DNA of 27,187 nucleotides from contig JAZDNV010000027.1 in the NCBI GenBank assembly GCA_043799385.1, positions 1 to 27,187 on the forward strand, in the 5' to 3' direction. The DNA comes from Candidatus Aenigmatarchaeota archaeon (GTDB lineage Archaea; Aenigmatarchaeota; Aenigmatarchaeia; GW2011-AR5). Within the stretch, counting starts at the first letter, position 1; the number at the start of each line of letters is the position of its first letter. Both the position numbers and the translations under genes were made by a program. Positions 271-22,797 of the stretch are shown in pieces. Below the pieces are notes generated by a model. It worked only from the letters and a program-made list of their open reading frames with translations, ran no database searches and was not told where the DNA came from.

Positions 271-912
271 ATGAAAATCTTATCGCTGATATCCGGCGGG
301 ATTGACTCGCCTGTCGCTGCGGCAATGCTCGCGAGAAAACACGAGGTGATATTATTGCATTTCTACCTTTACCCGTATTATGTGAAAGAGTCGCTGTTCC
401 TGACCGTAGACGCGATGAAAAGGCTGGAGAAATTTGGAATCAAAAAAGTTATTATATTTCCATGGAAAGAGGTATTCGATGCAATGGGGCGCGGCGGAAA
501 ATACAGATGCGTCTTATGCAAGAAGTCGATGTTCAAGGCCGCGGAGCTCGTGTGCAAAAAAGAGAAGGCGAGCGCGATTGCCACTGGCGAGGCGCTCGCA
601 CAAAAGGCGAGCCAGACGCTTGACAACCTTTATGCAACGAGCTATGGAATCAAGGTGCCTATACATCGTCCGTTGCTTGGACTTGACAAAAATGAGATTA
701 TAGAAATATCAAGGAAATTCGGATTGTTTTCCGAGAAGCATGCCGGCTGCTGCAAGGTTATCCCGTACATGCCGTCAACCAAGGCTGATGCGATGATGAT
801 AAACGGCTTGTACAAAGAATTGAAATTGCAGAAAATCATCGAGAAGAACCTCAAAAAAACCGTTGAAGTAAAAATTGAAAAGCTGGACTACACGATAACC
901 GATAGACTATGA
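271..912 (+). CDS. thiI: ThiI-like tRNA sulfurtransferase, catalytic PP-loop domain only (no N-terminal THUMP domain)
   Basis: SGGIDSPVAA PP-loop at the very N-terminus, CVLC, TGEALAQKASQTLDNL, RPLLGLDKNEII and GCC motifs. Confidence 0.8.
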   Translation: MKILSLISGGIDSPVAAAMLARKHEVILLHFYLYPYYVKESLFLTVDAMKRLEKFGIKKVIIFPWKEVFDAMGRGGKYRCVLCKKSMFKAAELVCKKEKASAIATGEALAQKASQTLDNLYATSYGIKVPIHRPLLGLDKNEIIEISRKFGLFSEKHAGCCKVIPYMPSTKADAMMINGLYKELKLQKIIEKNLKKTVEVKIEKLDYTITDRL

Positions 913-917
913 CATGT

Positions 918-1005
918 AGCTTTGCACAAAAACCAGGCTATCGTCACAGAGACGATAGCCTACCATCGATGGACATCTCGCGGCGTTCACTTTTTGTGCA
1001 AAGCT
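918..1005. mobile_element. MITE-like element, copy 1 (88 bp)
   Basis: TIR AGCTTTGCACAAAAA / TTTTTGTGCAAAGCT; perfect 9 bp flanking direct repeat ATGACATGT (909-917 and 1006-1014); internal hairpin AGGCTATCGTC-ACAGA-GACGATAGCCT. Confidence 0.85.
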
Positions 1006-1609
1006 ATGACATGTGCATTTTCTCCCAGCTGTTGAATTCGTCATCGCTGATTCTAGTTTTCTTTTCACGCTGTTCTAAAAAATTTTTCCTTATCGCTAAT
1101 CCAACGACTATACCGAATGCCAACCCGAAAAGATGCGCGATATGGGCAACGTCGGTTGGTGAAAAGGTACCGAGCAGGTCTATCATTGCCCAGAAGCCTG
1201 CGGCAACTACCATGGGCATCGGCGCGCCGTAAACCCAGACAACCATTCTCGGTCTTATTGCAGCTAAGCACCCCATAACGCCAAATATCGCGCCGGACGC
1301 GCCTAACACGGATTTATAGAATAACGCAGCGCCAACGCCTGCGATAATACCGGATAAAAAGAATATTATCAGAAATTTTCGGCCACCGATGATTTTTTCG
1401 AGTATTGAGCCGAACAATGCAAGCGCAAAGATATTCGACAGCAGATGCTCTGCACTACCATGCAGAAATATCGAAGTGAGCAGAATCCAGGGCCGTAGCA
1501 GAACGTCTGCTGAAACAAGAACGAAATCGTCTGTTATCTGCGGCGTTTGCAAGATGAATATAGCTATGCAGAGAATTGACAGCTTTATGGCATACCACTG
1601 GAACTTCAT
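1004..1609 (-). CDS. Rhomboid-family intramembrane serine protease
   Basis: PW.LLTSIFLH...HLLSN, GASG catalytic Ser motif, AHLFG catalytic His, several TM helices. Confidence 0.93.
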   Translation of the reverse strand: MKFQWYAIKLSILCIAIFILQTPQITDDFVLVSADVLLRPWILLTSIFLHGSAEHLLSNIFALALFGSILEKIIGGRKFLIIFFLSGIIAGVGAALFYKSVLGASGAIFGVMGCLAAIRPRMVVWVYGAPMPMVVAAGFWAMIDLLGTFSPTDVAHIAHLFGLAFGIVVGLAIRKNFLEQREKKTRISDDEFNSWEKMHMS

Positions 1610-1640
1610 TTAAAATAAATGATTGGAAAGAATAAAAACG

Positions 1641-1832
1641 CTACTTCATATCCTTTATTGTTATCGCGTTGGCCGGGCAGATTTCTGCTGCTTCCTTGTT
1701 GCAGCCGACATCATTCAACATTGTCTTCTTCGGGCATGCCTTGGTGCCCTTCATCTCCCAGTTGGCGCAAACTGACGTGCACGAACCGCAGCCGATGCAC
1801 GCATTCTTGTTGAACTCTATCTTGTAATTCAT
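1641..1832 (-). CDS. Ferredoxin (single Fe-S cluster type)
   Basis: CIGCGSC...C and C-terminal CPANAI in a 63 aa protein. Confidence 0.9.
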   Translation of the reverse strand: MNYKIEFNKNACIGCGSCTSVCANWEMKGTKACPKKTMLNDVGCNKEAAEICPANAITIKDMK

Positions 1833-2077
1833 TTTACTGCCTCGTTCATCGCTTTCAGCATTTCTTTTAACTGCTTATCGTTCATGCCATGAGACATCGC
1901 TCCACCTTCAACTGTCTCAAAAAAAGCGACATGGCAGCCAATGCAGTGAAGCCCGTGCTTCATCATAATTTCTGCTGCTTTAGGATATTTCTCGACGACC
2001 TCGCCAAGCATCATGTCTTTTGTTATTTTTTCTTTTTTTGCTTCGCTCTTTGAAGTTTTTTCCTTTTTCATAATCAT
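1829..2077 (-). CDS. DUF1858-type small redox-disulfide protein
   Basis: ITKDM.LGEVVEKYP......M.HGLHCIGC....FETVE.GA..HG pattern. Confidence 0.85.
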   Translation of the reverse strand: MIMKKEKTSKSEAKKEKITKDMMLGEVVEKYPKAAEIMMKHGLHCIGCHVAFFETVEGGAMSHGMNDKQLKEMLKAMNEAVK

Positions 2078-2604
2078 TATTTCTTAATGTCTTCGACAAC
2101 GATTTTGCAGGTTGTCGGCAGCTTATATTTAGCCTGCTTCAAAGCTAACTTCGCTGTTTTTATACAGTTGCTGTTTACGCGTATCTCGATTATTTTCTGG
2201 CCTTCATGAACCTGCGCGGCTGTGGACATAGGTTTGCCGAAGCTCTGTCTCATTCCCTGCTGGAAACGGTCAGCACCGGCGCCCGTAGCGAGTGCGTTCT
2301 CGCGCAAAACATGGTGAGGAAAGACTCGGATTTTGAAGAAAAAAGAATTGCCTTTTCCTATGTTCTTCTCCAGCGTCTGGACTGCCGATACGCGAGCTGC
2401 TTCCAATGAATTGTGGCGAATCTGCACATCCTCGTTGGACACAAGAAATATCGCGTTATCGTAAACCTGCTTCTTGCCTAATTCGAACTCCGTGAGCTTT
2501 GGCTTAGGCACTCCTTTTACGTAGCCCTTTCTAGGGACATGAATCGATACTCTAGTGTAAGGCCTGTGATGCCTTCTGTAACATCTTCCTGGTCTAAGTG
2601 CCAT
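2077..2604 (-). CDS. rpl10e: 50S ribosomal protein uL16 (L10e)
   Basis: MALRPGRCYR, QIRHNSLEAAR, RVFPHHVLREN...GAGADR...GMRQSFGKP. Confidence 0.97.
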   Translation of the reverse strand: MALRPGRCYRRHHRPYTRVSIHVPRKGYVKGVPKPKLTEFELGKKQVYDNAIFLVSNEDVQIRHNSLEAARVSAVQTLEKNIGKGNSFFFKIRVFPHHVLRENALATGAGADRFQQGMRQSFGKPMSTAAQVHEGQKIIEIRVNSNCIKTAKLALKQAKYKLPTTCKIVVEDIKK

Positions 2605-2650
2605 AATATCACATAACTAACGTTTTGAAAGATTCTTAAGCTTAATCATG

Positions 2651-2738
2651 AGCTTTGCATAAAAACTAGGCTATCATTGCAGAGATGATAGCCTACAATC
2701 GATGTACATCTCGCGGCGTTCACTTTTTGTGCAAAGCT
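2651..2738. mobile_element. MITE-like element, copy 2 (88 bp)
   Basis: TIR AGCTTTGCATAAAAA / TTTTTGTGCAAAGCT; flanks TTAATCATG (2642-2650) and TTAATCATT (2739-2747), 8/9 match; hairpin AGGCTATCATT-GCAGA-GATGATAGCCT. Confidence 0.85.
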
Positions 2739-2752
2739 TTAATCATTGCGCG

Positions 2753-3952
2753 TTAGTATTTTTCATTCAGAACAAACCTGAACAGCAGCGGCGTAAGTAT
2801 TATTGTAACCAGAACAAAGCCTATTACGACTGTATATAATTGCTGACTTATGATGCCCATTACAAGAGCGATTTGTGCAATGGCGATGTTATAGCAGCCG
2901 CGAGGTATCATTCCTACACCAATCATCATCTTCTCTTTTCCATGATAACCGAAGAAGCCTGATAAAACACCGGAACCTACATATTTTGCAACGACTCCTA
3001 ATGCGACTAGTGCCATTATCACCCAGAAGAAGTTGAAAAACGCAGCGACGTCAACGAATATTGCAGAATACGCAAAATAGAGCGGTATCAAAAAGCCATA
3101 GCCTATGGATTTCATCTTCGGCAGTATGACAGGCTCTGCAAACTGGCTCTTGGACATTGCCATGCCTGCCAGGAACGCTCCGGCTATGTAACCTAAACCA
3201 ATATTCTCGCTTAACGCGGAGAAGATGAACAAGAGAAATATAGACACGGCAAGAAGGATTTCTTCGTCCATGAAATACCTAGTCGAGCTCAATGCTCTGT
3301 TTACTATCTTCGAGCCGACAGTAGAAATCAGGAATATGAAACCGATTATCAATAACAGCAACTTGAACAGCTCGTCGAATATAACCGTGTGGTTCTTGGA
3401 ATACATCATCAGCGCTGAGAACGCCAGTACTGCGAAAATCGTGTCAGCTAGATTAGCAGCCATCAGCATCTTTCCGCCCCTTGAATGATATATTCCTTTT
3501 TCAGATATCACGCGTATAGCCACCGACGTGCTTGTCGACAGTATGAGAACGCCTATTATAAAGCCGGTGACGATGCCGGAAGAAGCAATGGCAGAACCGG
3601 CATTGATATCCGGCAAGGCGACACCGAACGCTATGCCAAATACCAGGGAGAGCGCACAGCCGACAACGCCGATGTAGCACGCTGGGTAGACGATGTCTTT
3701 TATATCGTCAAAAGTTGTCGACAAACCTATCAGGAACATCAGAAAGACCACGCCGAGCGTTGCAATATAACCTAGCGACTCGTAAGGCGTTATTATATGC
3801 AGAATTGCGCCTAGAAGCACGCCGGCCAAAACTTCGCCTACTAGCGGGGTAAGGCTGAGCCTGTCTGTAATCTCGCCGAGTATCTTTGCGCCAACGAGCA
3901 GAATTCCTATATCAAACAGCAATTTAACTATCATAATCACATCGCTATCCAA
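2753..3952 (-). CDS. Cation:proton antiporter (CPA2 / NapA-Kef family)
   Basis: About 12 TM helices; GEVLAGVLLG, LGVVFLMFLIGL, TSTSV, GAFLAG, GMIPRG motifs. The TTG start is uncertain. Confidence 0.9.
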   Translation of the reverse strand: MDSDVIMIVKLLFDIGILLVGAKILGEITDRLSLTPLVGEVLAGVLLGAILHIITPYESLGYIATLGVVFLMFLIGLSTTFDDIKDIVYPACYIGVVGCALSLVFGIAFGVALPDINAGSAIASSGIVTGFIIGVLILSTSTSVAIRVISEKGIYHSRGGKMLMAANLADTIFAVLAFSALMMYSKNHTVIFDELFKLLLLIIGFIFLISTVGSKIVNRALSSTRYFMDEEILLAVSIFLLFIFSALSENIGLGYIAGAFLAGMAMSKSQFAEPVILPKMKSIGYGFLIPLYFAYSAIFVDVAAFFNFFWVIMALVALGVVAKYVGSGVLSGFFGYHGKEKMMIGVGMIPRGCYNIAIAQIALVMGIISQQLYTVVIGFVLVTIILTPLLFRFVLNEKY

Positions 3953-4021
3953 CTATAAACTTAAAGATAATTGTGCTGGAGACTATAAAATAATAATAGA
4001 AGTAGAGCGCCGAGAGCAGGA

Positions 4022-4083
4022 GTTTCCAAACCTTTCCTCTTAGCTTTCTTTTCCCAAGGCTTTTCTTTCTAAGAAAAGGCTTT
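4022..4083 (-). other. tRNA intron in the T-loop (position ~59/60, 62 nt)
   Basis: Relaxed BHB: central helix TTCA/GGAA (one mismatch), bulges AAA and ACT; splicing restores the T-loop TTCAAAT. Confidence 0.8.
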
Positions 4084-4132
4084 TTTGAACCTGCGCGAGC
4101 GTAATGCTCACATGCTTTCCAGGCATGCGCGT

Positions 4133-4183
4133 ATAGTCCTAATCCTTCTTTTGATTAATCTTTTCTTTTAAGAAAAGATTAGT
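4133..4183 (-). other. tRNA intron in the D-loop (position ~21/22, 51 nt)
   Basis: BHB-like: central helix GGTC/GACT, bulges CAA and ATA, intron helix CTAATC/GATTAG; splicing restores the D arm GCGG-AGCTTGGTCCA-ACGC. Confidence 0.8.
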
Positions 4184-4262
4184 TGGACCAAGCTCCGCCA
4201 TCTCGGCATCTATAATATCAACTTTCTTTCCTGCTAGACTTAAAAGCATTTAGTCTTGAGAA

Positions 4263-4430
4263 TCAGAACTTCTCCGCGTCCTCGATTAGCATGTCTGGGA
4301 TGTCGCCGTCCAAGACCTTGTAACGCAGGCGGCATTTCTTGCACAGCAGAATATTCTTCTTCTTATCATAATCGACGTCTCCCTTGCACTTCGGGCAGGC
4401 AAGTATGTCGAGCAATTCTTTTTTGAGCAT
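4263..4430 (-). CDS. Trm112-family methyltransferase activator (55 aa zinc-binding protein)
   Basis: Below the ORF-track cutoff. Manual translation MLKKELLDILACPKCKGDVDYDKKKNILLCKKCRLRYKVLDGDIPDMLIEDAEKF shows the LL.ILACP.CK...L.C..C...Y....IP.ML signature. Confidence 0.9.
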   Translation of the reverse strand: MLKKELLDILACPKCKGDVDYDKKKNILLCKKCRLRYKVLDGDIPDMLIEDAEKF

Positions 4431-4461
4431 ATTATTTCATCTGCTTCAATTCTTAAAAACC

Positions 4462-5217
4462 TTATTCTGTGACTTTTATGTCCCATTTTTTCAAAAATTT
4501 GTCAACATCGAGACCTTTTTCAAGTATGAAAGTTATCGCATCCGCAATGCTAGCAGCAGGGCGCTCTGATAATGATTTTATTATAACAGAATAGTTGGCC
4601 CTGTATTGGTCTTTTTCAACCGTCTCTAATGCCTTATAGAACTTCGTTGCCAAGCCGTCTACGCCTGATATTTCTTGGACAATATTAACAAAACCAGCAA
4701 AAAGTTTCCTTTCCTGCCAGTTAGGACTTTTTCCCAAAATGTATCTTACGTTGCTGTCGAATTCGCTACTCTTCATTGTATCGAATGCTTGCTTTAGCGG
4801 TTCTAGCTCTGGATAGGAGAATAATTCGTCCAGAGCGCCTTTGTAATAATCGGTTCGCTCTGGTTCTTTTGCTGCCCTGATAACATCATCAGGAGCTGAT
4901 TTCCTTCCATTCTCCTCTAGTATGTCGTAAAACTTCGACGTTTCTGATGGAGTGAGATATACACGGCCGTCCATTAATCTTCCTAATCTGCTTCTTCTGG
5001 CAAGACTACGCAGATAGTCTATGTTATAACCTACAAATCCCTGAATGTCTTCGAGCGTTGAATATTCGCGAAGCTTCACCCCGATTTCTTTCAATTGCTC
5101 ATCTGTTATACGATTGTCTTTTATTTTTATCCCGAACTCTTCTGCAAAATCCTTAGAACCACGCGTCAGTTTCGTTCCCAGCATCTTCGAAGCCTCAGCA
5201 ATAGAGTAGTCAGCCAT
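4462..5217 (-). CDS. Hypothetical protein, possibly with tandem N-terminal HTH-like repeats
   Basis: 251 aa ORF co-oriented with its neighbours; YSIAEASKMLG and YSTLEDIQGFVGYNIDYLRSLARR resemble Xis/MerR-type HTH starts. Function not recognised. Confidence 0.6.
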   Translation of the reverse strand: MADYSIAEASKMLGTKLTRGSKDFAEEFGIKIKDNRITDEQLKEIGVKLREYSTLEDIQGFVGYNIDYLRSLARRSRLGRLMDGRVYLTPSETSKFYDILEENGRKSAPDDVIRAAKEPERTDYYKGALDELFSYPELEPLKQAFDTMKSSEFDSNVRYILGKSPNWQERKLFAGFVNIVQEISGVDGLATKFYKALETVEKDQYRANYSVIIKSLSERPAASIADAITFILEKGLDVDKFLKKWDIKVTE

Positions 5218-5255
5218 ACGCCTATCAATATGGAAAAGTTTTAATTGGTTAGAAA

Positions 5256-6440
5256 TCAGTGGTGAGAGAAAGTCCTCTCTCCAGTAAGCACCATCGCTAT
5301 GCCGTATTTGTTTGCAGCTTCTATTGATTCTTTGTCCTTGATAGAGCCGCCTGTTTGCGCGACTGCTTTAATATCTCTTGGAGCAATAGCATCTACAGAA
5401 TCAGGTTCAGGGAACAATGCCTCGGATGCAAGAACACTACCTTTAGTAGAATAATCAAAGATTTTATTTCTTTCGAATGCTATATCCTGTTTCACAGCTG
5501 CTGTATTGAAATCGTCGATCTTTCTTATGCTATCTACGACAGAATAGACTCTTGCCTGTTTGCCAGTTCCAGGGCTTATCAGTACGCCGTCCTTTACTAT
5601 CGCTGTTGCATTAGACCTCAAAACCGCCGCAGCATACCAAGCGAACCTTAAATCCGACAACTCTTTTCCAGTTGGAGCTCTTTCAGTAACCACGCCTAAA
5701 CCTGTAAGTTTTTCACCGTTGCTTCTTGTGTATTCTTTTGCCAAGAAGTCGTCAGGTTTCCTTATCCTTGATAAAAACCTATCCTCAAACGATAGCATGC
5801 CATCAATACCGCCTTGTGCCTTTATGACAGGTGCCGCCATGTCACCATCGTATTTCGGCATACTTTCAAGACCCTTGTACAGAAGCGCACGCAAATCAGG
5901 CCTTTTATCCAATTCAGCCATAGCTCCCTGTTCATATTCAGGGGCTGCAACAACTTCTATGAAATATTTTGTTTTATCATTTGATTTCTCAACCATCAAT
6001 TGCGCTAACTCTTTGGTAACAGGCTTATTGAATCCGACTACTCCGCCGAATGCAGAAACAAAATCGCAGTACCATGCCCTCATAAATGCCTTTTCTAAAT
6101 CATCGCTGACTGCTGCGCCACAAGGGTTTTCGTGCTTCATCACTACGCATGTTGGCTCATCCATATACTTGAGCAACTCAGCTGCCCAAAAAGAGTCTTC
6201 TATATTAGTCAGCGAGAAACCGCCTTTCCCTGATTTGACGGATTCAACGCGGAAATCATAATCAGCGGGAACAAGCAATGTAAAAAGTTGGTGCGGGTTC
6301 GTTCCGTATCTCTCTGGTATCATTGCATGGACATAATCCACCTTATTTTTTGTTCCGTCCTGGTATTCTATTTCTATCGTTAAGTGCGTGGGTTTGTTGC
6401 CCTGTAACGGTCTTCTGTACTGCTGTTTTATCTCAGTCAT
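5256..6440 (-). CDS. purH: AICAR transformylase (PurH C-terminal domain only, no N-terminal IMP cyclohydrolase domain)
   Basis: RYGTNPHQ, MKHENPCG, SAFGGVV, FIEVVAAP, LRSNA, ASEALFP, QTGGSIKD and terminal RTFSH motifs. Confidence 0.88.
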   Translation of the reverse strand: MTEIKQQYRRPLQGNKPTHLTIEIEYQDGTKNKVDYVHAMIPERYGTNPHQLFTLLVPADYDFRVESVKSGKGGFSLTNIEDSFWAAELLKYMDEPTCVVMKHENPCGAAVSDDLEKAFMRAWYCDFVSAFGGVVGFNKPVTKELAQLMVEKSNDKTKYFIEVVAAPEYEQGAMAELDKRPDLRALLYKGLESMPKYDGDMAAPVIKAQGGIDGMLSFEDRFLSRIRKPDDFLAKEYTRSNGEKLTGLGVVTERAPTGKELSDLRFAWYAAAVLRSNATAIVKDGVLISPGTGKQARVYSVVDSIRKIDDFNTAAVKQDIAFERNKIFDYSTKGSVLASEALFPEPDSVDAIAPRDIKAVAQTGGSIKDKESIEAANKYGIAMVLTGERTFSHH

Positions 6441-7232: not shown

Positions 7233-7312
7233 GTTACTTTTTTGTAAAAGGTTATTTATAAAATTGATGCAAAAATTTATCAGATTGTAATTCATCTGTA
7301 ATGCTGCTGTGG

Positions 7313-8260
7313 TTATTTCATTTTCGGGTAAATTCCTTTCTGAATAATCACGCGATCAGTCTTCGCAGCGAGTCCGCTTCGCTTCATCATCTCCTCGCTG
7401 GTCATGTTCGATTTTGCCAGGGCGATTAATTCTCCTTTCAGCGAGAGCAGCGCAACTAAATCTTCTTTTTCAATCCCTTTCTCAATTCTGCTGATGCCTT
7501 GCGAATAGAGCGGCGAGCCATCAACGATTGTGGCAATCGCGGAGTCTTTGACTATTATCTTTCCGGTGTGCTCTATCGCGGCTTCGACCGGCAGAACGTA
7601 TTCGCGTATTCTTTCGTCGCCGCTGCTCTTCCAGAATTCGTAAGAATCGACTAAATCTTGTATTTTCACTGACATGCTCTCATCGAATCTGCCAACTCTT
7701 GTTCTTCTCAATTCGCTCATGTGCGCGCCGCCAGTCTCACGACCAATCTGGTGGCAGATAACGCGAATATACGTTCCTGCCTCGCAGGATACGCGAAATA
7801 AAACATCTTTGCCTTTTCTCTCAAGCATTTCGAATGAATGTACTTTGCGCGTTCGCTCTTTTCTGGCTACAGCGCTTCTTCGTGGCGGCGTCTGCCTTAT
7901 CTCACCCGTGAATTTCTTTATCACTTTCGCCAACTCGCTATCGCTGACGTCTTTGTGCAGATGCATTATTCCTACGTACTCTTTGTCCAGTTTCTGCAAT
8001 GCCGGAATAACTTTGCAGGCGTTTTCTAAAGTAATCGGCAGAATTCCTGATACGCCTGGGTCGAGCGTGCCGCTGTGACCGGCGCGACTAAGGCCAAAAA
8101 TCTTTTTTACAGTCGCAGAGACGTCGTGGCTAGTTGGACCGCACCACTTGTCTAAAATCACCAAGCCGTTCTTGATTAATTCTTCAACAGAACGAGAACC
8201 CGGGTATTTTCCATACTCCATTATTGCTATGTCGTTTGATTTTACCAGGAATTCTTTCAT
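7313..8260 (-). CDS. cbf5: H/ACA RNA-guided pseudouridine synthase Cbf5 (TruB family)
   Basis: DK..GPTSH, GHSGTLDP, KEYV..M.LH, CEAGTYIR, M.ELRRTR and a C-terminal PUA domain. Start at ATG 8260 (ATGA overlap with the upstream gene). Confidence 0.95.
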   Translation of the reverse strand: MKEFLVKSNDIAIMEYGKYPGSRSVEELIKNGLVILDKWCGPTSHDVSATVKKIFGLSRAGHSGTLDPGVSGILPITLENACKVIPALQKLDKEYVGIMHLHKDVSDSELAKVIKKFTGEIRQTPPRRSAVARKERTRKVHSFEMLERKGKDVLFRVSCEAGTYIRVICHQIGRETGGAHMSELRRTRVGRFDESMSVKIQDLVDSYEFWKSSGDERIREYVLPVEAAIEHTGKIIVKDSAIATIVDGSPLYSQGISRIEKGIEKEDLVALLSLKGELIALAKSNMTSEEMMKRSGLAAKTDRVIIQKGIYPKMK

Positions 8261-10052: not shown

Positions 10053-11387
10053 TCATATATCTGAGCCGTGCGTTCTGCCCACATGGATGTCAAGGCTCTT
10101 TCTCGTTTTGAACGCTTTGTCGCATTTCGCGCACTTGAACAGCGGACTCTTCCACTCTACCTTCTTTTTTTTCATAATGCGGAAGGGATAGGTCACCGGA
10201 TTCTTTATGCCTCTGCAGTATTGATCGGGTTTGCACAAGCCAATGTCAATATAATACATGTTGTTGCTGCAATTCGCCGGCGGAGTGCTCTCTCTCTTCT
10301 CGTGATAGCGTATCGTCGACAGAACTATGCTGTTGGGCAATGTGGATTTGTTATTTTCATTCCACTTGAATATTCTCTCCTGTATCTCCTGCGGAGACCA
10401 GTTCATCATCCTAAGGAAATTGACCAAAGTGAAAATGCTGCGCTTTCTTCCATCTGACAAGCCTCCTAAAATTAATTTAATGCAAGGCGGGAAAAGTTCT
10501 TCATCTATCTTCTTGTCCCAGCTTATTATTCTCTTCGGCTTTGCCTTTTCTTCTTTCATCATCATGGCGTTCCAGTCCAGCGCCGCAAGAAGGAGCGACT
10601 CGGCTTCGTTCTCCTCGCCTCTAAAAAATACTTCTGCTACCTTTACTTTTTTCGGGTTCGCAGATTCGATTGAGAAGTTTTTCAGCTGCTGGAAATTTAT
10701 CGGCAGCGAGGCAAGCCATGTCTTCTCGTTTAGCGAATATGGCGCGCGGAAAAGGTGGCGAGAGCCCCAATCTTTTTCGACCTCGACAAAATAGTACGGG
10801 TCGAGCTTGTCCGGCGGCTCCTCTAAGATGCTTAGCAGCTCCTTAGCGCTCTTTCTTCTTATAAGCTCGCGCATCAAATCGTCGGCGATGCTGTTCCTTA
10901 TGAATGCCGCGATTATGCGCGGTATTTTCGGGTATTGCTTTGCGAATGGCGTAAAATCTATCTCTTTCGGAAACATCTCGTTCGTCAGGCAGATGTGAAA
11001 GCCGCGGCGACCTGAAAATTTTATTCCGTAGTTCCTTATCCCGTAACGCTCAAGAAAATTGCATATCATCGTCGCCGTGAGCTGCGCCTCATCGATTCCG
11101 ATTTTTGAATCAATGTCAATAACGATGTCGAATCCTTTCCTCAACTGCTCATAATTTTCGTTCGTCAGCTGCATGACGTTCTTCCATTTCTCGACAGAGA
11201 TATGAAATGAAGTTATACCTTTTTTTGCCATCTGCACGATGTCGCTAGGGTATTGGATCATGTTTGGCCGCGAATCATAGCTGCCATCGAAATAAGCACC
11301 GACTACTTCACGGTCCTTTGAGTTCTTGACAAGCTCGTTGATTATATCCTCTCTTGAGTAGTATTCAATGATTTCTTGCTTGTTCAT
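10053..11387 (-). CDS. Fused DNA primase PriS-PriL with a C-terminal C2H2 zinc finger
   Basis: PriS motifs DIVIDID, KFSGRRGFHI, RAPYSLNEKT; PriL-CTD Fe-S cysteines FPPCI, PPANC, GLC..., YC..IKNP; terminal FKCAKCDKAFKTRKSLDIHVGRTH. Confidence 0.9.
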   Translation of the reverse strand: MNKQEIIEYYSREDIINELVKNSKDREVVGAYFDGSYDSRPNMIQYPSDIVQMAKKGITSFHISVEKWKNVMQLTNENYEQLRKGFDIVIDIDSKIGIDEAQLTATMICNFLERYGIRNYGIKFSGRRGFHICLTNEMFPKEIDFTPFAKQYPKIPRIIAAFIRNSIADDLMRELIRRKSAKELLSILEEPPDKLDPYYFVEVEKDWGSRHLFRAPYSLNEKTWLASLPINFQQLKNFSIESANPKKVKVAEVFFRGEENEAESLLLAALDWNAMMMKEEKAKPKRIISWDKKIDEELFPPCIKLILGGLSDGRKRSIFTLVNFLRMMNWSPQEIQERIFKWNENNKSTLPNSIVLSTIRYHEKRESTPPANCSNNMYYIDIGLCKPDQYCRGIKNPVTYPFRIMKKKKVEWKSPLFKCAKCDKAFKTRKSLDIHVGRTHGSDI

Positions 11388-13548: not shown

Positions 13549-15907
13549 GATAACGATGACTGGTTTCAAGTCGTTCGCCGGGAAGGTCACGATACCGTTT
13601 CCGTCCGGCTTCAACTGCATATGCGGGCCGAACGGCTCTGGCAAATCGAACATCGTGGATGCAATTACATTCGTTCTTGGAACGACATCTGCGAAAAGCA
13701 TACGAGCCGCGAAACTGCAGAACCTTATATTCAACGGCGGAAAGGACAGAAAGCCTGCCGATTATTGCGAAGTCATCCTGTATATAGACAACAGCGATGG
13801 AAAAATACCTGGCTGCGAAAAAGATGTCAAGATAACCAGGCGCATCACCAGAAGCGGGATAAGCGTTTACAAGCTGGATGGAAAGACTGAAACAAGGAAC
13901 AAGGTCTTGGATTTGCTGGCGAACGCAAATCTCTCGCCCGAGGGCTACAACATCATCATGCAGGGCGACATAACACGAATAATAGAAATGAACAACATGG
14001 AGAGGAGAGGGATAATAGACGATGTCTCAGGCATAGCCGAGTTCGACGAAAAAAGAGCGAAGGCGACAAGTGAATTAGAGAAAGTTGAGACACGCGTCAG
14101 AGAAAACATGATAGTTGTAGCAGAGAAGCAGCGGCTGGTCGCGCGATTAAAGGAGGATAAGGAAAACGCCGAGAGATACAAGGTTTTGAATGATAAGCTG
14201 AGGAAATCAAAAGCATCGCTGCTGCGGAAAAGAATAGTTGAAATCGAGACAAATCTAAAAAAACTGGACAACGACATACAGGAAGGCACGACCAAGCTCG
14301 AATCAGTTGACAGGAATTTTATTGATATAGAGAACCGCCTTGATTCCACAGGCAAGAGCATCTTAACGAAGAGCGATGAGATTGTCAAAAAGGCTCGCGA
14401 CTACGAGTTAATCAAAAAGATAGACGGCATCACTACAGAGATACTCAGAAAGCGCGACCGAATAGACATGAATGAGAGAGAAATAAAGAGATTAGAGATA
14501 CGCAGCCCGGTTGTAAAAGCAGTATTGGATCAAAATCTGCCTGACATATACGGTACGGTTTCTTCTCTGGTGAAAGTACCAAAAAAATACACGATTGCAA
14601 TAGAAGTTGCGATAGGCAACCACAATAATGACATAATCGTTTCAAATGACAGCGTTGCAGAAAACTGCATTAAAATGCTGAAGGAAAAGAAAATTGGTCG
14701 TGCGCGATTTTTGCCGCTGAACAAGGTAAAGGGCGAGAAGAAGAAAGGAAACGAACTTTATGCCATCGATGTGGTAGAATTCGACAAAAAGTATCAGAAT
14801 GCGATAGAATACATTCTCGGCAGCACTGCAATCGCTGACGATATCGGAAAGGCCAGGAAGCTCAGCGGTCGCATCGTGACGCTTGATGGTGATTTAATAG
14901 AAGCGTCAGGAGCAATGCTTGGCGGTTTTTACGAGAGAAAATTCTTCGGCGCAGAACGGTTCATAGAGGAGAATGAAAGACTGAAGAAGGAAATTGCCGG
15001 GCTTGAGGAAGAACTAAACAAACTGAAGGAAGAAGAAAAAACGACGATGGATGAGATAAATAAACTTGAGGATGAAAAAACAAAGGAGAGCAAGGAAGTT
15101 GAAGAATTGCGAATGAAGAGAAGCCAGCTCTATGAAGAAAAAATACTGCTGCAGGGTAACATCAGCAAACATAAAATAGAGAGCGCAAGGATAGAAGCAA
15201 GCTACGAGAGCATAAAAATTGAATACGGAGAATACGATGATGTAAAGGACTTCTACGAGCTCAGTTTGGACAAACTGCAGGAGAACGTGAGAACGTGCAT
15301 AACAGAGATAAACCAGCTCGGTCCGATAAACATGAAGGCCATTGACGAGTACCACATAATAAGCTTTGAGTTTGACGAACTCAAAAAGAAATTAGATAAG
15401 CTACTGGAAGAGAAAACGTCGATAATGAACGTCGTGCATGAAGTTGAGAAAAAACGTTATGAAAAATTCATTGAAACTTTCAACGAGATATCCAAGAACT
15501 TCTCGAGAATATACACAGACCTAATGAACGGCTTCGGCCAACTACGATTAGAGATAGAAAACAACATAGACTCAGGCCTTGTGATTGAGGCGAGCCCGGC
15601 TGGAAAAAAGGTTCTGAATCTGGATGTTATGTCGGGCGGTGAAAAAACTATGACGTCGCTTGCGTTCCTCTTCTCAATACTTGAGTTCTACTCGGCGCCG
15701 TTCTACATCTTGGACGAGATGGATGCGGCGCTCGACAAGGCAAATGTAAAAAAGATTGTAAGCCTGATGAAGAAATACTCAAAGGAGCGTCAATTCATAG
15801 TTATAACGCACAATGACTTCACGATACAAGAAGCGGATAAAGTCTTCGGCGTATCGATAGAAGACGGTGCGTCAAAAGTCTTCGGAATCGAGATGCCTAA
15901 AGAGTGA
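13532..15907 (+). CDS. smc: Chromosome segregation protein SMC, short-armed (791 aa)
   Basis: GFKSF, Walker A GPNGSGKSN, Q-loop IIMQG, hinge (YGTV...GRARFLPLN...VTLDGD...SGAMLGG), LGPINMKAI, signature MSGGEK, Walker B FYILDEMDAALD, QFIVITH. Confidence 0.95.
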   Translation: MVRLDRITMTGFKSFAGKVTIPFPSGFNCICGPNGSGKSNIVDAITFVLGTTSAKSIRAAKLQNLIFNGGKDRKPADYCEVILYIDNSDGKIPGCEKDVKITRRITRSGISVYKLDGKTETRNKVLDLLANANLSPEGYNIIMQGDITRIIEMNNMERRGIIDDVSGIAEFDEKRAKATSELEKVETRVRENMIVVAEKQRLVARLKEDKENAERYKVLNDKLRKSKASLLRKRIVEIETNLKKLDNDIQEGTTKLESVDRNFIDIENRLDSTGKSILTKSDEIVKKARDYELIKKIDGITTEILRKRDRIDMNEREIKRLEIRSPVVKAVLDQNLPDIYGTVSSLVKVPKKYTIAIEVAIGNHNNDIIVSNDSVAENCIKMLKEKKIGRARFLPLNKVKGEKKKGNELYAIDVVEFDKKYQNAIEYILGSTAIADDIGKARKLSGRIVTLDGDLIEASGAMLGGFYERKFFGAERFIEENERLKKEIAGLEEELNKLKEEEKTTMDEINKLEDEKTKESKEVEELRMKRSQLYEEKILLQGNISKHKIESARIEASYESIKIEYGEYDDVKDFYELSLDKLQENVRTCITEINQLGPINMKAIDEYHIISFEFDELKKKLDKLLEEKTSIMNVVHEVEKKRYEKFIETFNEISKNFSRIYTDLMNGFGQLRLEIENNIDSGLVIEASPAGKKVLNLDVMSGGEKTMTSLAFLFSILEFYSAPFYILDEMDAALDKANVKKIVSLMKKYSKERQFIVITHNDFTIQEADKVFGVSIEDGASKVFGIEMPKE

Positions 15908-15912
15908 TAATA

Positions 15913-16004
15913 ATCTTTGCACAAAAAATGATGGACATCTGTATGATGTCCATCGATGGTAGGCTATCGTCGCAAAGACGATAGCCTGGTTTTTGTGCAA
16001 AGTT
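15913..16004. mobile_element. MITE-like element, copy 3 (92 bp, inverted relative to the others)
   Basis: TIR ATCTTTGCACAAAAA / TTTTTGTGCAAAGTT; flanks GTGATAATA (15904-15912) and GTGATAAGG (16005-16013), 7/9 match; two perfect hairpins GATGGACATC-TGTAT-GATGTCCATC and AGGCTATCGTC-GCAAA-GACGATAGCCT. Confidence 0.82.
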
Positions 16005-16022
16005 GTGATAAGGACGATTAAA

Positions 16023-17320: not shown

Positions 17321-17321
17321 A

Positions 17322-17825
17322 TCACTTTTTCTTCATAAATAACTTCTCCGCTGGACATCCGATTTCTCTCTGTTTGCAATATTTGCAGGCGAAAGAACCT
17401 CTTATGAATGCATTGCCTGCAAATGAAAGGGATAACAAAACTGCAATTAATATCAAAAGTATCCAGTTAAAACTTCTGACTAAAAGTATGATTCCGCCGA
17501 TAAGTGGGAAGATAAAAACCATGAAATCGGGAATAATATCTTTCCATGTGATTTTGTCCTTTATGAATTTCTTGGGGTTGCCTTTTTTGAAAAACAAAGA
17601 GCACACCTTACCTTTGCCGAAACCGCATAATTTGCCGTAGTAGTAACAATTCACACAACTTCTTCTCAATACGTTAGACTCCATCCAAAGACAGTAAAGG
17701 GCGTATAGAACGACAAAAAATGCCCCGAATCCTGAAAAAATGTAGATTCCTATTGCATAGATTAATATCGAAAAAATGTTGGATAAAATAACTATTCTGA
17801 CAGGAAAATTTTCATATGTCAGCAT
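17322..17825 (-). CDS. Hypothetical membrane protein with Cys clusters
   Basis: About 4 TM helices; CVNCYYYGKLC...C and CKYCKQREIGCPA motifs. Confidence 0.75.
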   Translation of the reverse strand: MLTYENFPVRIVILSNIFSILIYAIGIYIFSGFGAFFVVLYALYCLWMESNVLRRSCVNCYYYGKLCGFGKGKVCSLFFKKGNPKKFIKDKITWKDIIPDFMVFIFPLIGGIILLVRSFNWILLILIAVLLSLSFAGNAFIRGSFACKYCKQREIGCPAEKLFMKKK

Positions 17826-17842
17826 CTTTTTCAGAGTATCAC

Positions 17843-18433
17843 CTAAATAACCTTGCCGAAAATCTTCTTCACGTCGCTGAATACCTCTTCAACGCCGCGG
17901 TTTCCGTCTACTATATATGTGTCCGGAAAGTAATTTTTCATCGACAGATATGCGTTCCTTATCTGTACGAGCTTTGACTCGTTCTCGAATAATTCCAGGT
18001 GATGCCGCGCCTTTTTCATGCGCTCGATGCAGATTTTCGGTTGCGTGTCGATTATGATTGTCAGGTTTGGCTTCTTGAAATTCTTGTTCAGATTCTGCAG
18101 GACGTCCTTGTTGATGTCAAGGCTGCCGTAAGCCAAACTGGACATTATGTACCTGTCGCATACCACGATTCTGTTCGCCTTCAATGCCGGTTCTATTTCG
18201 TTCTCAAGATGGTGCGAGCGGTCAGCAGCGTACAGAATCTGCAGCGTTATAGGCGATATCTTCCACTCTTTTTTCAGTGCTGATTTTATTATCCCGCCTA
18301 TAAGCCCGTCTGTAGGCTCTTTCGTCAATAACGTATCATAACCATTGCTAATCGAATGGTTCCTGAGCAGCGTTGCCTGAGTCGTTATGCCGCTGCCATC
18401 CAGGCCTTCAAAGACAATAAACTTTCCCGCCAT
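17843..18433 (-). CDS. tmk: Thymidylate kinase
   Basis: FIVFEGLDGSG.TTQ, KEPT, AADR..H, CDRY..SS.AY. The P-loop reads GSGITT rather than the usual GSGKTT. Confidence 0.92.
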   Translation of the reverse strand: MAGKFIVFEGLDGSGITTQATLLRNHSISNGYDTLLTKEPTDGLIGGIIKSALKKEWKISPITLQILYAADRSHHLENEIEPALKANRIVVCDRYIMSSLAYGSLDINKDVLQNLNKNFKKPNLTIIIDTQPKICIERMKKARHHLELFENESKLVQIRNAYLSMKNYFPDTYIVDGNRGVEEVFSDVKKIFGKVI

Positions 18434-18495
18434 ATCAACCGCTTGTTATATTATTATCTGTTGTATTTAAAATTTATATTATTGCAGAAGAAGTA

Positions 18496-18909
18496 TCAGA
18501 ACTCCTTTGATATCTTGTACTCAGGACAGTTGGCGGCGACAACTTCAACTTTTTTTGGTTTGGTTGTTTCGTTGAGGCTTATAATAGCTGTCGTGCTTTC
18601 AACCGGGCCCAGCGGGTCTTTTGCTCCGTAGTTCTTCAGCAGTATATTCTCAACGTTCTTTTTCGGGTCGTCGTATATTATGGAAGCCTTCAGCGTTGAC
18701 AGATTGAAATTGTTGTTGGTGTTCTCTATCCTTACTGTTACGTTGCCTTCGCTGAAGCTCAAATCCGCTATACCGAGCGCAAATACGCATTTTGTAGAAC
18801 CGAGCTTCGAGGACGGGAAAGAAGTCGCCCAGGTAGCCATCACTCCTGCAATTGTCATCGTAATACCAATCAGCAATACGCTTGCAATCAACGGCGATAT
18901 GCCCTTCAT
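18496..18909 (-). CDS. Archaeal type IV pilin-like protein (class III signal peptide)
   Basis: MKG|ISPLIASVLLIGITMTIAGV: prepilin cleavage motif followed by a hydrophobic helix. Confidence 0.88.
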   Translation of the reverse strand: MKGISPLIASVLLIGITMTIAGVMATWATSFPSSKLGSTKCVFALGIADLSFSEGNVTVRIENTNNNFNLSTLKASIIYDDPKKNVENILLKNYGAKDPLGPVESTTAIISLNETTKPKKVEVVAANCPEYKISKEF

Positions 18910-18982
18910 CTCTAAACCCTCTAATTACTATATTTTACTTATATTTGGTAATATAAATATTTTTTAAAGGTCTGTGCTTTGA

Positions 18983-20230
18983 TTAAACAAGGCCAAATGC
19001 CTGAATAATTCCGAACGAATGCAGAACTGTGAGCAGGCATATGACGCCCAAGAGATCAACGCCGCTCGCCACTAAAGGTAACGTAACGTTATCCGGATCC
19101 AGCCCGTACTTATACGACAGTATTGACACTGCGAATGAAACGAATAACACGATGGTTATCAGTATGAAGGCTGATATCATCACTACTTCAATAATCTGAA
19201 ACAGTGTCATGCCGGACACGCCAAAAATATAGCCAGAAAACCATATCAGCACGCTCATTATGAGAAATATGAAGAAAGTCAGTATGTATGAATTCAGGAA
19301 CTCTTTTTTTGTCTCATTATCTATCCTAAGCGTTGGGTCCAGAGTACCAAGATGTAATTTTGAAGCAAGTCTGGATGACAAAACATTTCCAATGTTTCCG
19401 CCCTCTTCTAAGAATGCTGGAAGCAGGACGAATATTATCGGTATGCTCACAATGCTCTCTATGTTGAATTCGACTAGTATTCCTGCAAACGTATCCAGAA
19501 TTGCACACAATGCCAGAATTATCGACGATTGTAAGACAATGTTCCTGCAGGAACCTTCTTTGAGAAATATCATGTCATACTTAGTTTCCTTTGAAAAAAC
19601 CAGGAAAATGTTCATTATTGTTATAGCAATGATTATTATGAACAGGAAAATAACATACTCCGTTATCGCAAGCACAACATATGCAGCCAGCAGTAATGAA
19701 GGGATAGTCACGAAGTCTCCGAACGCTGTTATCAGCGGAGCCTGTATGTTGTCCAAATCCCAGCCGTAGCGATACGCAAGGACAGCTGTGCCGAATGTTA
19801 TTACGATAAGGATTGATCCGGCAATCGTTCCTGCGATGAAAGAAATCAGAACAAAGGAAACCATGCCTATGCTCGCAAGACCTAGTATTTTTGTCAATAT
19901 ATCTGCCAAGAAGCCGAGAAACACGGATAATGCGATTGTTGTCGTGAACGTTGCATAAATGTTGTTCTTCACAACACGGTTGCCTAGCGTGAACTTGTCT
20001 ATTGTACCTAAGTGTAATGCCGAGCCTAGACGCGAACCGAGGGCGGAAAAAATGTTTCCGCGCATGCCCAGCGCAGGCGGAACTAGGATGAAAAGACCCG
20101 GCAGCATCAGCAGCGTTTCGCTGAATTTTCCAAGAAGTAGTCCAGCAAAAACTGCAGCTAGTACGCTAATCAAAAGCGCGACAAAGCTCTGTCTCAGTGC
20201 TTTGTCAGTAAAAACGTATAGAAGCTGCAT
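18983..20230 (-). CDS. MgtE-family divalent cation transporter (duplicated membrane domain)
   Basis: Two repeats of P......GN......SRL.S.LHLG and D[LP]DN...PL......D motifs. Confidence 0.9.
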   Translation of the reverse strand: MQLLYVFTDKALRQSFVALLISVLAAVFAGLLLGKFSETLLMLPGLFILVPPALGMRGNIFSALGSRLGSALHLGTIDKFTLGNRVVKNNIYATFTTTIALSVFLGFLADILTKILGLASIGMVSFVLISFIAGTIAGSILIVITFGTAVLAYRYGWDLDNIQAPLITAFGDFVTIPSLLLAAYVVLAITEYVIFLFIIIIAITIMNIFLVFSKETKYDMIFLKEGSCRNIVLQSSIILALCAILDTFAGILVEFNIESIVSIPIIFVLLPAFLEEGGNIGNVLSSRLASKLHLGTLDPTLRIDNETKKEFLNSYILTFFIFLIMSVLIWFSGYIFGVSGMTLFQIIEVVMISAFILITIVLFVSFAVSILSYKYGLDPDNVTLPLVASGVDLLGVICLLTVLHSFGIIQAFGLV

Positions 20231-20257
20231 CAAGTCACCAAAAACGCTATATTACCC

Positions 20258-20830
20258 TTATAGGCACTTTAGTGTTCCTTTTGCAAGCTTCTGCAACCTT
20301 CCACATGGCGATGAAGGCCCTACACCTATCAGTATGTCGTCTTCCAGCACTGTCGTGTTTCCGTTCGGGTCGAATATCCATCTGTCTTTTCTTCTTATAC
20401 CGACGATGCGGACGCCAATCTCTGTCGCAAGCTTTATTTCTCCCAGCGTCTTGTTGCATAACGGCGACTTCTTCGATACGACGGCACGCGTTATACTTTC
20501 GTCCGTTTCGCTCAATGCCTCTTTTATTATCGGATGCAGTTCGCCGCCGCCCAAAACTAACTCGCTCATGTTCCTCGCTGCGGTCGCAACGAATTTCGAA
20601 CTCTCGACGAGGTCAAGGACGCTTATCAGCCTTTTCGCTGGCCTTCCTCTGGAGGCAGCCATAAGATGCAGGTACAAACGTTCTTCTGTATACTCCAGAT
20701 TATTGTAGAGCAGAAGCACTTCCTTTGCAATCTCCTTGTTCTCGAAGAAAACAGAAGAATATGCAAGATCCAGCATAAGTTCAGAGAGATTCTTCATATC
20801 CTCAATCAATTCTTTAACGTTCTCGGCCAT
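20258..20830 (-). CDS. PhoU-like plus TrkA-C domain protein (partner of the MgtE-type gene)
   Basis: MKNLSELMLDLAYS helical domain and SPL.NKTLGE..L....GVRIVGIRR...W.F.P.....L...D TrkA-C domain; GGTGA upstream of ATG 20830. Confidence 0.85.
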   Translation of the reverse strand: MAENVKELIEDMKNLSELMLDLAYSSVFFENKEIAKEVLLLYNNLEYTEERLYLHLMAASRGRPAKRLISVLDLVESSKFVATAARNMSELVLGGGELHPIIKEALSETDESITRAVVSKKSPLCNKTLGEIKLATEIGVRIVGIRRKDRWIFDPNGNTTVLEDDILIGVGPSSPCGRLQKLAKGTLKCL

Positions 20831-20890
20831 GTTCATCACCAATATTATTATGTTCGAAACCTATAAAATCTTTGCAATCAATGTTATAAA

Positions 20891-21916
20891 ATGCCTGACA
20901 TCATAAAAGAGGATTTGAATACGATAAAATCCAGCCTGAAGGGATTTGAAAAAAATATAAAGAACAAGACGTTTCTGGTCACAGGCGGCTCCGGCTTTCT
21001 CGGTTCATGGTTCTGCGACACGCTCAATACCTTCGACGCAAAAATAATATGTGTTGACAACTTTTCATCAGGAGCGGAGAAAAACATTGAGCACTTGTTC
21101 AAGTCGAAAAACTTCAGGCTTTTGAAAGCAGACATATGCAGCTTCAAGATAAATGAGAAAATAGATTACATCGTGCACATGGCAAGCATCGCTTCGCCGC
21201 CGCTGTACCAGGAAAAGCCAGTGGAGACGATAGACTCGAACGTACTTGGAACAAGGAATATGCTCGAGCTCGCGAGAAAGAACAACGCTAGAATGCTTTT
21301 TACGAGCACTAGTGAAGTCTATGGCGACGCACGCGTCGTTCCTAGTCCTGAAAACTATTACGGCTATGTAAATTCTTACGGCCCGAGATGCATGTATGAC
21401 GAAGGAAAAAGATGCGCAGAGGCGTATTGCTATTCGTATTGGAAAAAATACGGTCTTGATATCAGAATAGTGAGAATATTCAACACATATGGCCCGCGTC
21501 TGGACTCTGATGCTAACCAGTATGGCCGTGCATTGGTGAAGTTCGTATCGCAAGCGCTGAAAAACCAGGACATAAGCCTGTACAGCGATGGCAAACAAAC
21601 AAGGAGTTTCTGCTACATCACAGACCAGATTAATGGTCTATTCAGGCTTCTTCTGACCGACGGCTTGGCTGGCGAGGTCGTCAACATAGGCAACGACAAG
21701 GAGATAACCATACTGCAACTAGTGGAAAAAGTGATAAAATTGACCAAATCATCGTCCAAGATAGGGTTTAACACTCCGCCGAATTATGATATAAAAGACG
21801 ACCCCAGAAGAAGATGCCCAAACATAACAAAGGCAAGAAAATTGCTGAAGTACGAGCCGAAAATAAGTTTAGATCAGGGATTGAAGAGAACAGTCGATTG
21901 GGTTAGATTTAAATAA
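20891..21916 (+). CDS. NAD-dependent epimerase/dehydratase, UDP-glucuronate decarboxylase-like
   Basis: TGGSGFLGS, HMASIASP..Y, STSEVYGD, GPRCMYDEGKR.AE, RIFNTYGPR, QTRSFCY, DDP.RR.P.I. Confidence 0.92.
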   Translation: MPDIIKEDLNTIKSSLKGFEKNIKNKTFLVTGGSGFLGSWFCDTLNTFDAKIICVDNFSSGAEKNIEHLFKSKNFRLLKADICSFKINEKIDYIVHMASIASPPLYQEKPVETIDSNVLGTRNMLELARKNNARMLFTSTSEVYGDARVVPSPENYYGYVNSYGPRCMYDEGKRCAEAYCYSYWKKYGLDIRIVRIFNTYGPRLDSDANQYGRALVKFVSQALKNQDISLYSDGKQTRSFCYITDQINGLFRLLLTDGLAGEVVNIGNDKEITILQLVEKVIKLTKSSSKIGFNTPPNYDIKDDPRRRCPNITKARKLLKYEPKISLDQGLKRTVDWVRFK

Positions 21917-21971
21917 TTTGCTGACAATTCTTCGAATACTTTTCAGAAATGAAATCAATATAGGTGATGGT

Positions 21972-22151
21972 ATGAAAATAGGCAAAATATACGAAAAAAG
22001 TGAGATAGAGAATAATGGTTTTTCATTTCATAGAAAAACCAAACAGGGTGGATTAGTCTACAGCGACGGGAGTCTTTTTTGTTTGTTTGAAAGGGCTCCG
22101 AAAGGGTTGCAGCTAATAGCAAGGTATCATGGTGAGCTGAAAAGAAAATAA
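21972..22151 (+). CDS. Small hypothetical protein (59 aa)
   Basis: AGGTGA SD motif just upstream of ATG 21972; ORF fills the intergenic gap. Confidence 0.55.
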   Translation: MKIGKIYEKSEIENNGFSFHRKTKQGGLVYSDGSLFCLFERAPKGLQLIARYHGELKRK

Positions 22152-22174
22152 GTCGTCGGGATTGATAGACTTTG

Positions 22175-22657
22175 CTACCTTTTTCTCATCTTCCATATTC
22201 CGTAAGCAATCAGCAGAATTCCGGCAATGAAAACAATTATCATAATAATGTCGTTGGAAGACGCTGAACTGAAATCCCTGCCTGAGTCTGTTGCAGTCGC
22301 GGCTGCTTCAGGAACGCTCTTCATTGCTAGCGGTTGCTGTGTGGATGCAAAAAAGCTTCCTATCACCATGACAAAACCGATGAAAACCGTGAAGATTATC
22401 TGTATCGGGAATGATGGCCTCATAATATTTTTTCCGTTCTGCGTCAGCTCGTAGTAAATCCATTTATGCCCTGTCTCAATCCTTTTGACCAAACCCAGTT
22501 TTTCCATTTCTTTCAGGTGTTCTGACGTCGTTGAAGGCGCAAGGTTTAGCTCTCTGGAAAGCTCTGTTGGCATCTTTCTCCTGTTATTGAGATTTTTCAA
22601 TATCTCAACCTTCGTGTCGCTTGACAGGGCCTTAAGCGTCTTTTTGTCTATTTCCAT
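22175..22657 (-). CDS. ArsR-family winged-HTH regulator with two C-terminal TM helices
   Basis: LKALSSDTKVEILK.L.....PTELSREL.LAPST.SEHLK.ME..GLV.......WIYYELT..G followed by two hydrophobic segments. Confidence 0.88.
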   Translation of the reverse strand: MEIDKKTLKALSSDTKVEILKNLNNRRKMPTELSRELNLAPSTTSEHLKEMEKLGLVKRIETGHKWIYYELTQNGKNIMRPSFPIQIIFTVFIGFVMVIGSFFASTQQPLAMKSVPEAAATATDSGRDFSSASSNDIIMIIVFIAGILLIAYGIWKMRKR

Positions 22658-22691
22658 AACAGAAACTGTGCAGAAAATTATTTATTTCTTC

Positions 22692-22775
22692 AGCTTTGCA
22701 CAAAAACAGGCTATCGTCTTTTTGACGATAGCCTAACGTCGATGGGATTGCGCGTATCACTTTTTGTGCAAAGCT
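22692..22775. mobile_element. MITE-like element, copy 4 (84 bp)
   Basis: TIR AGCTTTGCACAAAAA / TTTTTGTGCAAAGCT; flanks TATTTCTTC (22683-22691) and TATCTCTGC (22776-22784), 7/9 match; hairpin AGGCTATCGTC-TTTTT-GACGATAGCCT. Confidence 0.82.
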
Positions 22776-22797
22776 TATCTCTGCCGATTATTTTTTT

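Follow-up and report, generated by a model that had tools for sequence, protein, structure and literature searches.

We analyzed a stretch of 27,187 nucleotides (the window; contig C2 of the assembly, JAZDNV010000027.1) from the 786-kb, 91%-complete genome of a Candidatus Aenigmatarchaeota archaeon (GCA_043799385.1). It carries four copies of a MITE (miniature inverted-repeat transposable element) with terminal inverted repeats (TIRs) and 9-bp target-site duplications (TSDs). Our combined findings suggest, with a probability of roughly 0.88, that these copies belong to a family of non-autonomous MITEs in DPANN archaea of the Aenigmatarchaeota type, a family that has a partner transposon acting in trans, a portable core and promoter-targeted insertion. 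An IS5-type cargo transposon that we found in relatives is the most likely agent of their movement. A large part of the family occupies a single precise position before promoters, and the sub-group in the window does not.

All four copies of the original prediction were re-located at their coordinates, with lengths of 84-92 bp, and re-measurement gave the same matches for their 9-bp flanking repeats (Table 1). The 15-bp TIRs said to be shared are present in the four copies but are not identical throughout: the left TIR of copy 2 has one mismatch, and the second base differs at both ends of copy 3. Copies 1 and 2 share 91% identity, copy 2 sits 46 bp upstream of where rpl10e starts, and all four copies are intergenic or touch a stop codon. 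Folding of every window copy beats 200 of 200 shuffles (z −4.4 to −12.1), and the elements have two internal hairpins that were absent from the first reading.

An iterated profile search of the assembly found 28 full copies of 83-99 bp, or ~36 per Mb, a count that leaves out one contig-end duplicate and two remnants. None of the 28 are identical (closest pair 99%, mean identity 67%). Direct-repeat identity across them was 0.76 at a length of 9 bp versus 0.23-0.37 at the other lengths from 2 to 14, and the mean TSD match was 6.8/9 versus 2.5 ± 0.3 (maximum 3.75) in 10,000 shuffled pairings. After boundary fixes, 9/9 bases matched in six copies, 8/9 in nine, 7/9 in six, 6/9 in two and 5/9 or fewer in five, i.e., 21 of the 28 have TSDs of at least 7/9. 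The copies genome-wide do show consistent 9-bp flanking duplications, and the initial claim of a multi-copy, non-autonomous TIR/TSD element in a DPANN genome, moved in trans by a DDE transposase, is supported. The accompanying idea that the insertions differ in age is plausible, given TSDs that range from 9/9 to 5/9 or fewer and a closest pair at 99%. The TIRs form sub-types in which positions 8-10 co-vary at both ends, with 13 copies of a GT-type and 15 of a GCA-type that includes all four window copies. In silico excision restored no broken gene, the four candidate joins being gene starts or spurious frames. Among copies with TSDs of at least 6/9, TSD mismatches read in element orientation were C/T in 32 cases versus A/G in 8 (13:2 in this genome, 17:4 in relatives and 2:2 in a new set). 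A replication-strand cause of this bias was rejected, there being no GC skew in element orientation, and so was gap-repair damage as the source of the mismatches (24 vs 16 in two classes, not significant). A second MITE type is present as a single 68-bp copy (contig C11, 12309-12376) with the same TIR group, a perfect 9-bp TSD and a subterminal repeat that resembles the ends of cargo transposons.

A covariance model of the whole element detected the MITE family in at least 12 of 43 genomes from the same taxonomic family, at least one of 26 others from the same order and none of 80 more distant genomes; the search scored 28 candidates per genome, and the counts are lower bounds. Most named records with this element were Aenigmatarchaeota, and a few belonged to other DPANN archaea. 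We extracted 45 copies from relatives; among the 42 with both flanks, the TSD was 9/9 in 19 and 8/9 in 14, and 19 measured exactly 99 bp. Pattern scans gave 26 genome loci, 44 metagenome loci and no viral loci. After the removal of duplicates and edge cases the core was found in 12 of these (11 of 99 bp) and the TIR type alone in 32, of which 13 measured 99-100 bp within a scan range of 81-108. The MITE was found neither in plasmids by blastn nor in viral contigs by pattern scan. In relatives, neither the 29 smc-scpA junctions nor the 29 rpl10e loci that we retrieved hold the element (0/58 occupied). These loci cover 29 of the 40 and 29 of the 39 genomes that have the respective gene, and the genomes represent other genera of the family and not sister strains. 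Since orthologous loci are empty in relatives and not always occupied, a fixed regulatory motif is ruled out.

Several further features of these loci deserve mention. The 32 TIR-only MITEs (L112-L178) have other interiors and some come from bacterial records; their length peak hints at an optimum for the transposase type. Ten copies of 126-155 bp from relatives (L060, L084-L089, L093, L095, L096) contain additional hairpins of ~28-54 bp nested within hairpin 1 or 2, and one locus exists in 99-bp and 150-bp forms (L162, L060), pointing to a second mobile palindrome of smaller size. At L139 and L149 the flanks derive from two different loci, indicating either recombination between identical copies or a chimeric assembly.

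The original observation that no transposase is visible in the window holds and extends to the whole assembly, and no convincing large TIR-bounded elements were found in this genome. Transposases bounded by the same TIR were found in relatives. IS5-like transposases occur in 17 of the 43 family genomes. With a TIR matrix built only from the MITEs, we delimited 10 complete transposons of 2.6-10.9 kb among 26 transposase loci in relatives and viral contigs; these loci surround the closest transposases, and some overlap or are repeated. The TSD was 9/9 in nine complete transposons and 8/9 in one, and one transposon end matches the MITE left end at 18/19 bases. Partner transposases are 320-430 aa long, the long form having an N-terminal SWIM finger; the DDE domain PF01609 was found in 7/7 and SWIM in 5/7, three of them above the cut-off. 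Among the proteins encoded by their passenger genes are an Mrr nuclease, methylases and a PD-(D/E)XK protein. The best NCBIfam model was NF033579 (IS5), at 142 bits in one transposase and 107-133 in five against a cut-off of 140, and the best-matching plasmid IS5 transposases share 23-27% identity with the partner. The partner resembles the IS903-like group without cleanly belonging to it. With 7,471 of 8,000 scored candidates, its protein family is a large one, and it reaches viral contigs (5/8 loci); no solved structure was matched by sequence. Viral-contig relatives of the SWIM-type transposase (L180-L184, 47% identity) might supply the enzyme in trans.

Compact IS5-type elements with related ends also occur in relatives. 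Those that could be delimited (L031, L032, L104) made 8-bp duplications, and every 9-bp duplication maker that we found is a cargo transposon. The MITE profile gave TIR-length matches alone on 20 transposase loci, which extend 1.5 kb on each side of the gene and do not always reach the far end. A Type I MITE, i.e., an internal deletion of the parent, was rejected because the interior matched none of these partner loci. We propose that an IS5/IS903-like transposase, often with a SWIM finger, would bind the MITE ends in trans, excise the element and reinsert it with a 9-bp stagger. At one locus (L194:2973-3292), tandem TIR-bounded units of ~95-99 bp are separated by differing spacers of ~9 bp, for which simple target duplication does not account.

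Insertion sites were analyzed with an independent promoter model, for which 319 element-free upstream regions of this genome served as the training set, counting flank position 1 as the first TSD base; three records with a shared flank were dropped beforehand. A TATA start at flank positions 15-19 was found for 10/28 copies in this genome, 23/51 other copies and 5/10 transposons, versus 4.5% of 4,000 random intergenic sites. Pooled, 38 of the 89 elements and transposons have their TATA start 16-18 bases from the element end. Given an intact downstream promoter, these proportions rise to 10/12, 23/31 and 5/7, versus 16% under the null (p = 5e-7, 9e-13 and 2e-3, respectively, relative to sites upstream of an intact promoter). 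Among the 53 scored promoters the TATA start is at exactly 16 in 25 and at 16-18 in 38. There is no mirror promoter motif on the far side of the element, and both element orientations are used. In the ancestral-length family and in the transposons, the end of the duplicated 9-mer lies just upstream of the B recognition element (BRE), with the TATA start 16 bases from the element end.

The copies in the window do not follow this rule (0/4). Two of them lie where one would not expect a promoter, and the TATA-like motif ahead of rpl10e is ~5 bases too close to copy 2. In this genome the rule fits 9/13 GT-type copies versus 1/15 GCA-type copies (Fisher p = 0.001, with the split made post hoc). The TSDs of GCA-type copies are no worse than those of GT-type copies, so decay is not the cause of the missing placement. 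The placement may reflect active, one-sided promoter targeting, most likely of DNA that is bound by TATA-binding protein (TBP) and transcription factor B (TFB) or bent at the TATA box. Insertion at the promoter edge would spare the genes and promoters of a compact genome, and the GCA-type copies without this placement would survive wherever tolerated, such as at stop codons and operon junctions.

Alternatively, the transposase could have a symmetric DNA-sequence preference of its own that happens to resemble BRE and sets the spacing, with host transcription factors uninvolved. IS903 has an intrinsic symmetric target-sequence preference, and the promoter side of our elements is A-rich at flank positions 11-13, the side having been picked by a BRE-containing model. 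However, a dimeric transposase is expected to read both sides, and the preference is absent on the far side, where AA stands at positions 12-13 in 3/38; we therefore find this explanation rather doubtful. A further explanation is that another, untargeted transposase of the IS5 family mobilized the GCA-type copies of the window. The compact IS5-type elements with related ends and the lack of the promoter rule in the GCA-type copies of this genome are in its favor, but those compact elements made duplications of the wrong length, and we consider it unlikely. That the placement is mere survivorship, with random insertion tolerated only just upstream of BRE, is improbable: intergenic space is indeed scarce (~80,600 of 786,014 sites) and the GCA-type copies show that other tolerated sites exist, but survivorship predicts a spread upstream of BRE, whereas of the 50 elements with an intact downstream promoter 38 lie within a span of 5 bases that holds 16% of the null, and 25 on one base.

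Between the TIRs, two hairpins of 10-11 bp each are joined by a short conserved linker. In 48 cores, 20/21 core pairs vary on both sides, 95.6% of cells are paired and 0/500 shuffles score as high, a covariation figure that is inflated by the relatedness of the copies. Among 23 copies with TSDs of at least 6/9, mismatches are fewer between TIR arms (15/345, 4.3%) than between TSD copies (27/207, 13%; p = 4e-4). Stem mismatches in 70 copies are G-U in 14 cases versus A-C in 13. Two loops match the reverse complement of loops from other copies exactly. According to the accessible part of PMC8794818, loop inversion is a trace left by template switching, through which compensatory changes are possible without selection. 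Given the loop inversions and the G-U/A-C parity, covariation here is no proof of RNA; strong covariation in repeats does not in itself prove it.

A domesticated structured RNA, in which a three-way junction serves as a bidirectional terminator, insulator or mRNA-stability element and the hairpins are under RNA selection, nevertheless has to be weighed. Besides the covariation and the well-matched TIR arms, it would account for the T-run that follows each hairpin on its own strand in the window copies and for the unpaired linker and 99-bp length kept across genera. It is at odds with the empty orthologous sites, with the loop inversions, which suit template switching (PMC8794818, accessible part), and with the equal numbers of G-U and A-C mismatches, though use in both orientations predicts equal counts too. 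In addition, copy 3 occupies the smc-scpA junction, which is 2-17 bp long in 6/29 relatives and a poor site for a strong terminator, and Rfam gave no matches in the window at gathering score. All told, an RNA role seems to us improbable.

A core-only model found this two-hairpin core flanked by at least two further TIR types; one instance lies in this genome and more were found in five relatives, several near 99 bp (Table 1). A REP/REPIN-type palindrome (REP, repetitive extragenic palindrome) was rejected: the core-only matches in this genome sit in TIR-bounded copies, bar one weak remnant. In our reading, the core is a portable module of help to any MITE, via its geometry or host tolerance. 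The interior would then be a two-hairpin module not derived from the partner transposon, whose arms may stay paired at least partly via DNA template switching, as the loop inversions suggest.

Several observations weigh against the mobile, promoter-targeted family described here. First, only 6/28 copies have a perfect TSD and 5/28 match at 5/9 or fewer. No strain-level empty site was seen, but the groundwater sequencing run used for this held 21% of the words and its contigs, with no joint that skips an element, covered the stretch only in patches. Second, no cognate transposase was found in the 91%-complete assembly with PF01609, PF13737, NF033579, tblastn or a custom HMM (hidden Markov model), and 11 of 13 MITE-bearing genomes had no match to the SWIM-type transposase. 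With this enzyme in just 2/13 MITE-bearing relatives, its supply is transient, unassembled or past. Third, 51 of the 89 elements and transposons have no scored promoter at the rule position. The contrast between GCA-type and GT-type copies, drawn post hoc, is absent in other genomes (5/11 GCA-type, 18/40 GT-type), and the cores of the GCA-type copies do not form one clade in a poorly resolved tree. Transposons with GCA-like ends sit at the promoter edge (L097, L202), so the TIR letters alone cannot account for the lost placement.

Table 1. Coordinates of the MITE copies, their target duplications and related core-bearing elements (window positions unless a contig or locus is named; fractions give the bases matching between the two 9-bp duplications).
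Feature	Position	Strand	Remarks
Left target duplication, copy 1	909..917	+	contains stop codon of ThiI-family gene (271-912, +)
MITE copy 1, 88 bp, GCA-type TIR	918..1005	+	gap between convergent ThiI-family and rhomboid genes
Copy 1 hairpins	hairpin 1 at 935-961		hairpin 2 eroded
Right target duplication, copy 1 (9/9)	1006..1014	+	rhomboid gene (1004-1609, -) ends at copy edge
Left target duplication, copy 2	2642..2650	+	
MITE copy 2, 88 bp	2651..2738	+	gap between Na/H exchanger gene (2753-3952, -) and rpl10e (2077-2604, -)
Right target duplication, copy 2 (8/9)	2739..2747	+	
Left target duplication, copy 3	15904..15912	+	contains smc stop codon (15905-15907)
MITE copy 3, 92 bp, two intact hairpins	15913..16004	-	smc-scpA junction
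Right target duplication, copy 3 (7/9)	16005..16013	+	scpA start (16023) 10 bp on
Left target duplication, copy 4	22683..22691	+	
MITE copy 4, 84 bp, short hairpin 2	22692..22775	+	gap between divergent ArsR-type helix-turn-helix gene (22175-22657, -) and beta-propeller gene (22858-24870, +)
Right target duplication, copy 4 (7/9)	22776..22784	+	
Core within different TIR types	this genome, contig C25 ~7992-8090; L219, L220, L227, L236, L218, L229		

Elsewhere in the window (10053-11387), a primase-like open reading frame of 444 aa has a small-subunit domain followed by a cysteine-rich region and is possibly a fused small/large primase.

As a MITE, the element is of an ordinary kind, and its lineage has been little studied. 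Its copies provide a dense insertion-site record of a DNA transposon at one base relative to archaeal TATA boxes, and they mark promoters in uncultured archaea. They also hold a caution, namely that strong covariation in repeats need not imply functional RNA. If host factors cause the placement, it would be a mode of targeting that we did not find in print for archaea and could provide a compact safe-harbor insertion tool. Going further, and only tentatively, an archaeal DDE transposase family may home to TBP/TFB-marked promoters with single-base precision, as a prokaryotic counterpart of Ty3, with a ~99-bp chassis swapped between end types and one lineage that has lost homing. If true, the lost homing in one MITE lineage would be a natural experiment on homing control.

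The Ty3 retrotransposon, a eukaryotic long terminal repeat (LTR) retroelement, targets TFIIIB-bound promoters. The likeness lies in a constant spacing between the insertion and a TBP/TFIIB-family site that serves as a safe harbor; in the archaeal family it concerns placement only, known from sequence. Structured MITEs (PMC10969869) and archaeal MITEs (PMC3718332) are already known, and MITE density is high in some DPANN genomes (PMC11602168), according to the accessible parts of these papers. The literature available to us, largely without subscription papers and including the accessible part of PMC11602168, contained no description of this MITE family or its promoter targeting, and neither SWIM nor Aenigm- occurs in the main text of a 2026 survey of archaeal insertion sequences (ISs) (PMC13343696). 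Like our family, the SM3A MITE of Sulfolobus, moved by ISC1058, is an archaeal MITE that persists without a working partner transposase; it differs in its length of 164 bp and its lineage, and the two are likened by description, not sequence (PMC3718332, accessible part).

The partner shares with the IS5/IS903-like group (NF033579; ISVa2-family plasmid transposases) the DDE_Tnp_1 domain, NF033579 as best model, the TIR type and the 9-bp TSD. It differs in that 1/6 passed the NF033579 cut-off, in its low identity to the plasmid matches and in its SWIM finger and passengers. A typical IS903-like element is compact (~1 kb) and encodes only a transposase, whereas the partner here spans 2.6-10.9 kb with passengers.

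We take ISAba12, the parent of MITEAba12 in Acinetobacter, to belong to the IS903 group of the IS5 family. The name IS903 appears nowhere in the accessible text of PMC6382973, which describes both elements. The TIR had been reported as an unrecognized type, a view that we revise: it resembles the ISAba12/MITEAba12 ends, by eye at 12/15 bases for the GT-type and 9/15 for the GCA-type (PMC6382973, Table 2), and the partner is IS5-like. From the accessible part of the same paper, our family and MITEAba12 are both ~100-bp non-coding elements with a near-identical TIR type, a 9-bp TSD and an interior unrelated to the parent IS (PMC6382973). MITEAba12 is mobilized in trans by an IS5-family element, as we propose for our family. 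MITEAba12 differs in being 113 bp long, 78% AT and highly uniform, with AT-richness as the only target trend and a compact 1-kb parent IS (PMC6382973, accessible part). The archaeal family, in contrast, has diverse mosaic copies, two covarying hairpins, a 2.6-10.9 kb cargo partner and insertion tied to archaeal promoters. Thus, this is a real MITE family that works like MITEAba12, its new features being promoter-edge placement and a swappable core, and the window adds a family-wide test of this placement together with a sub-group that lacks it.

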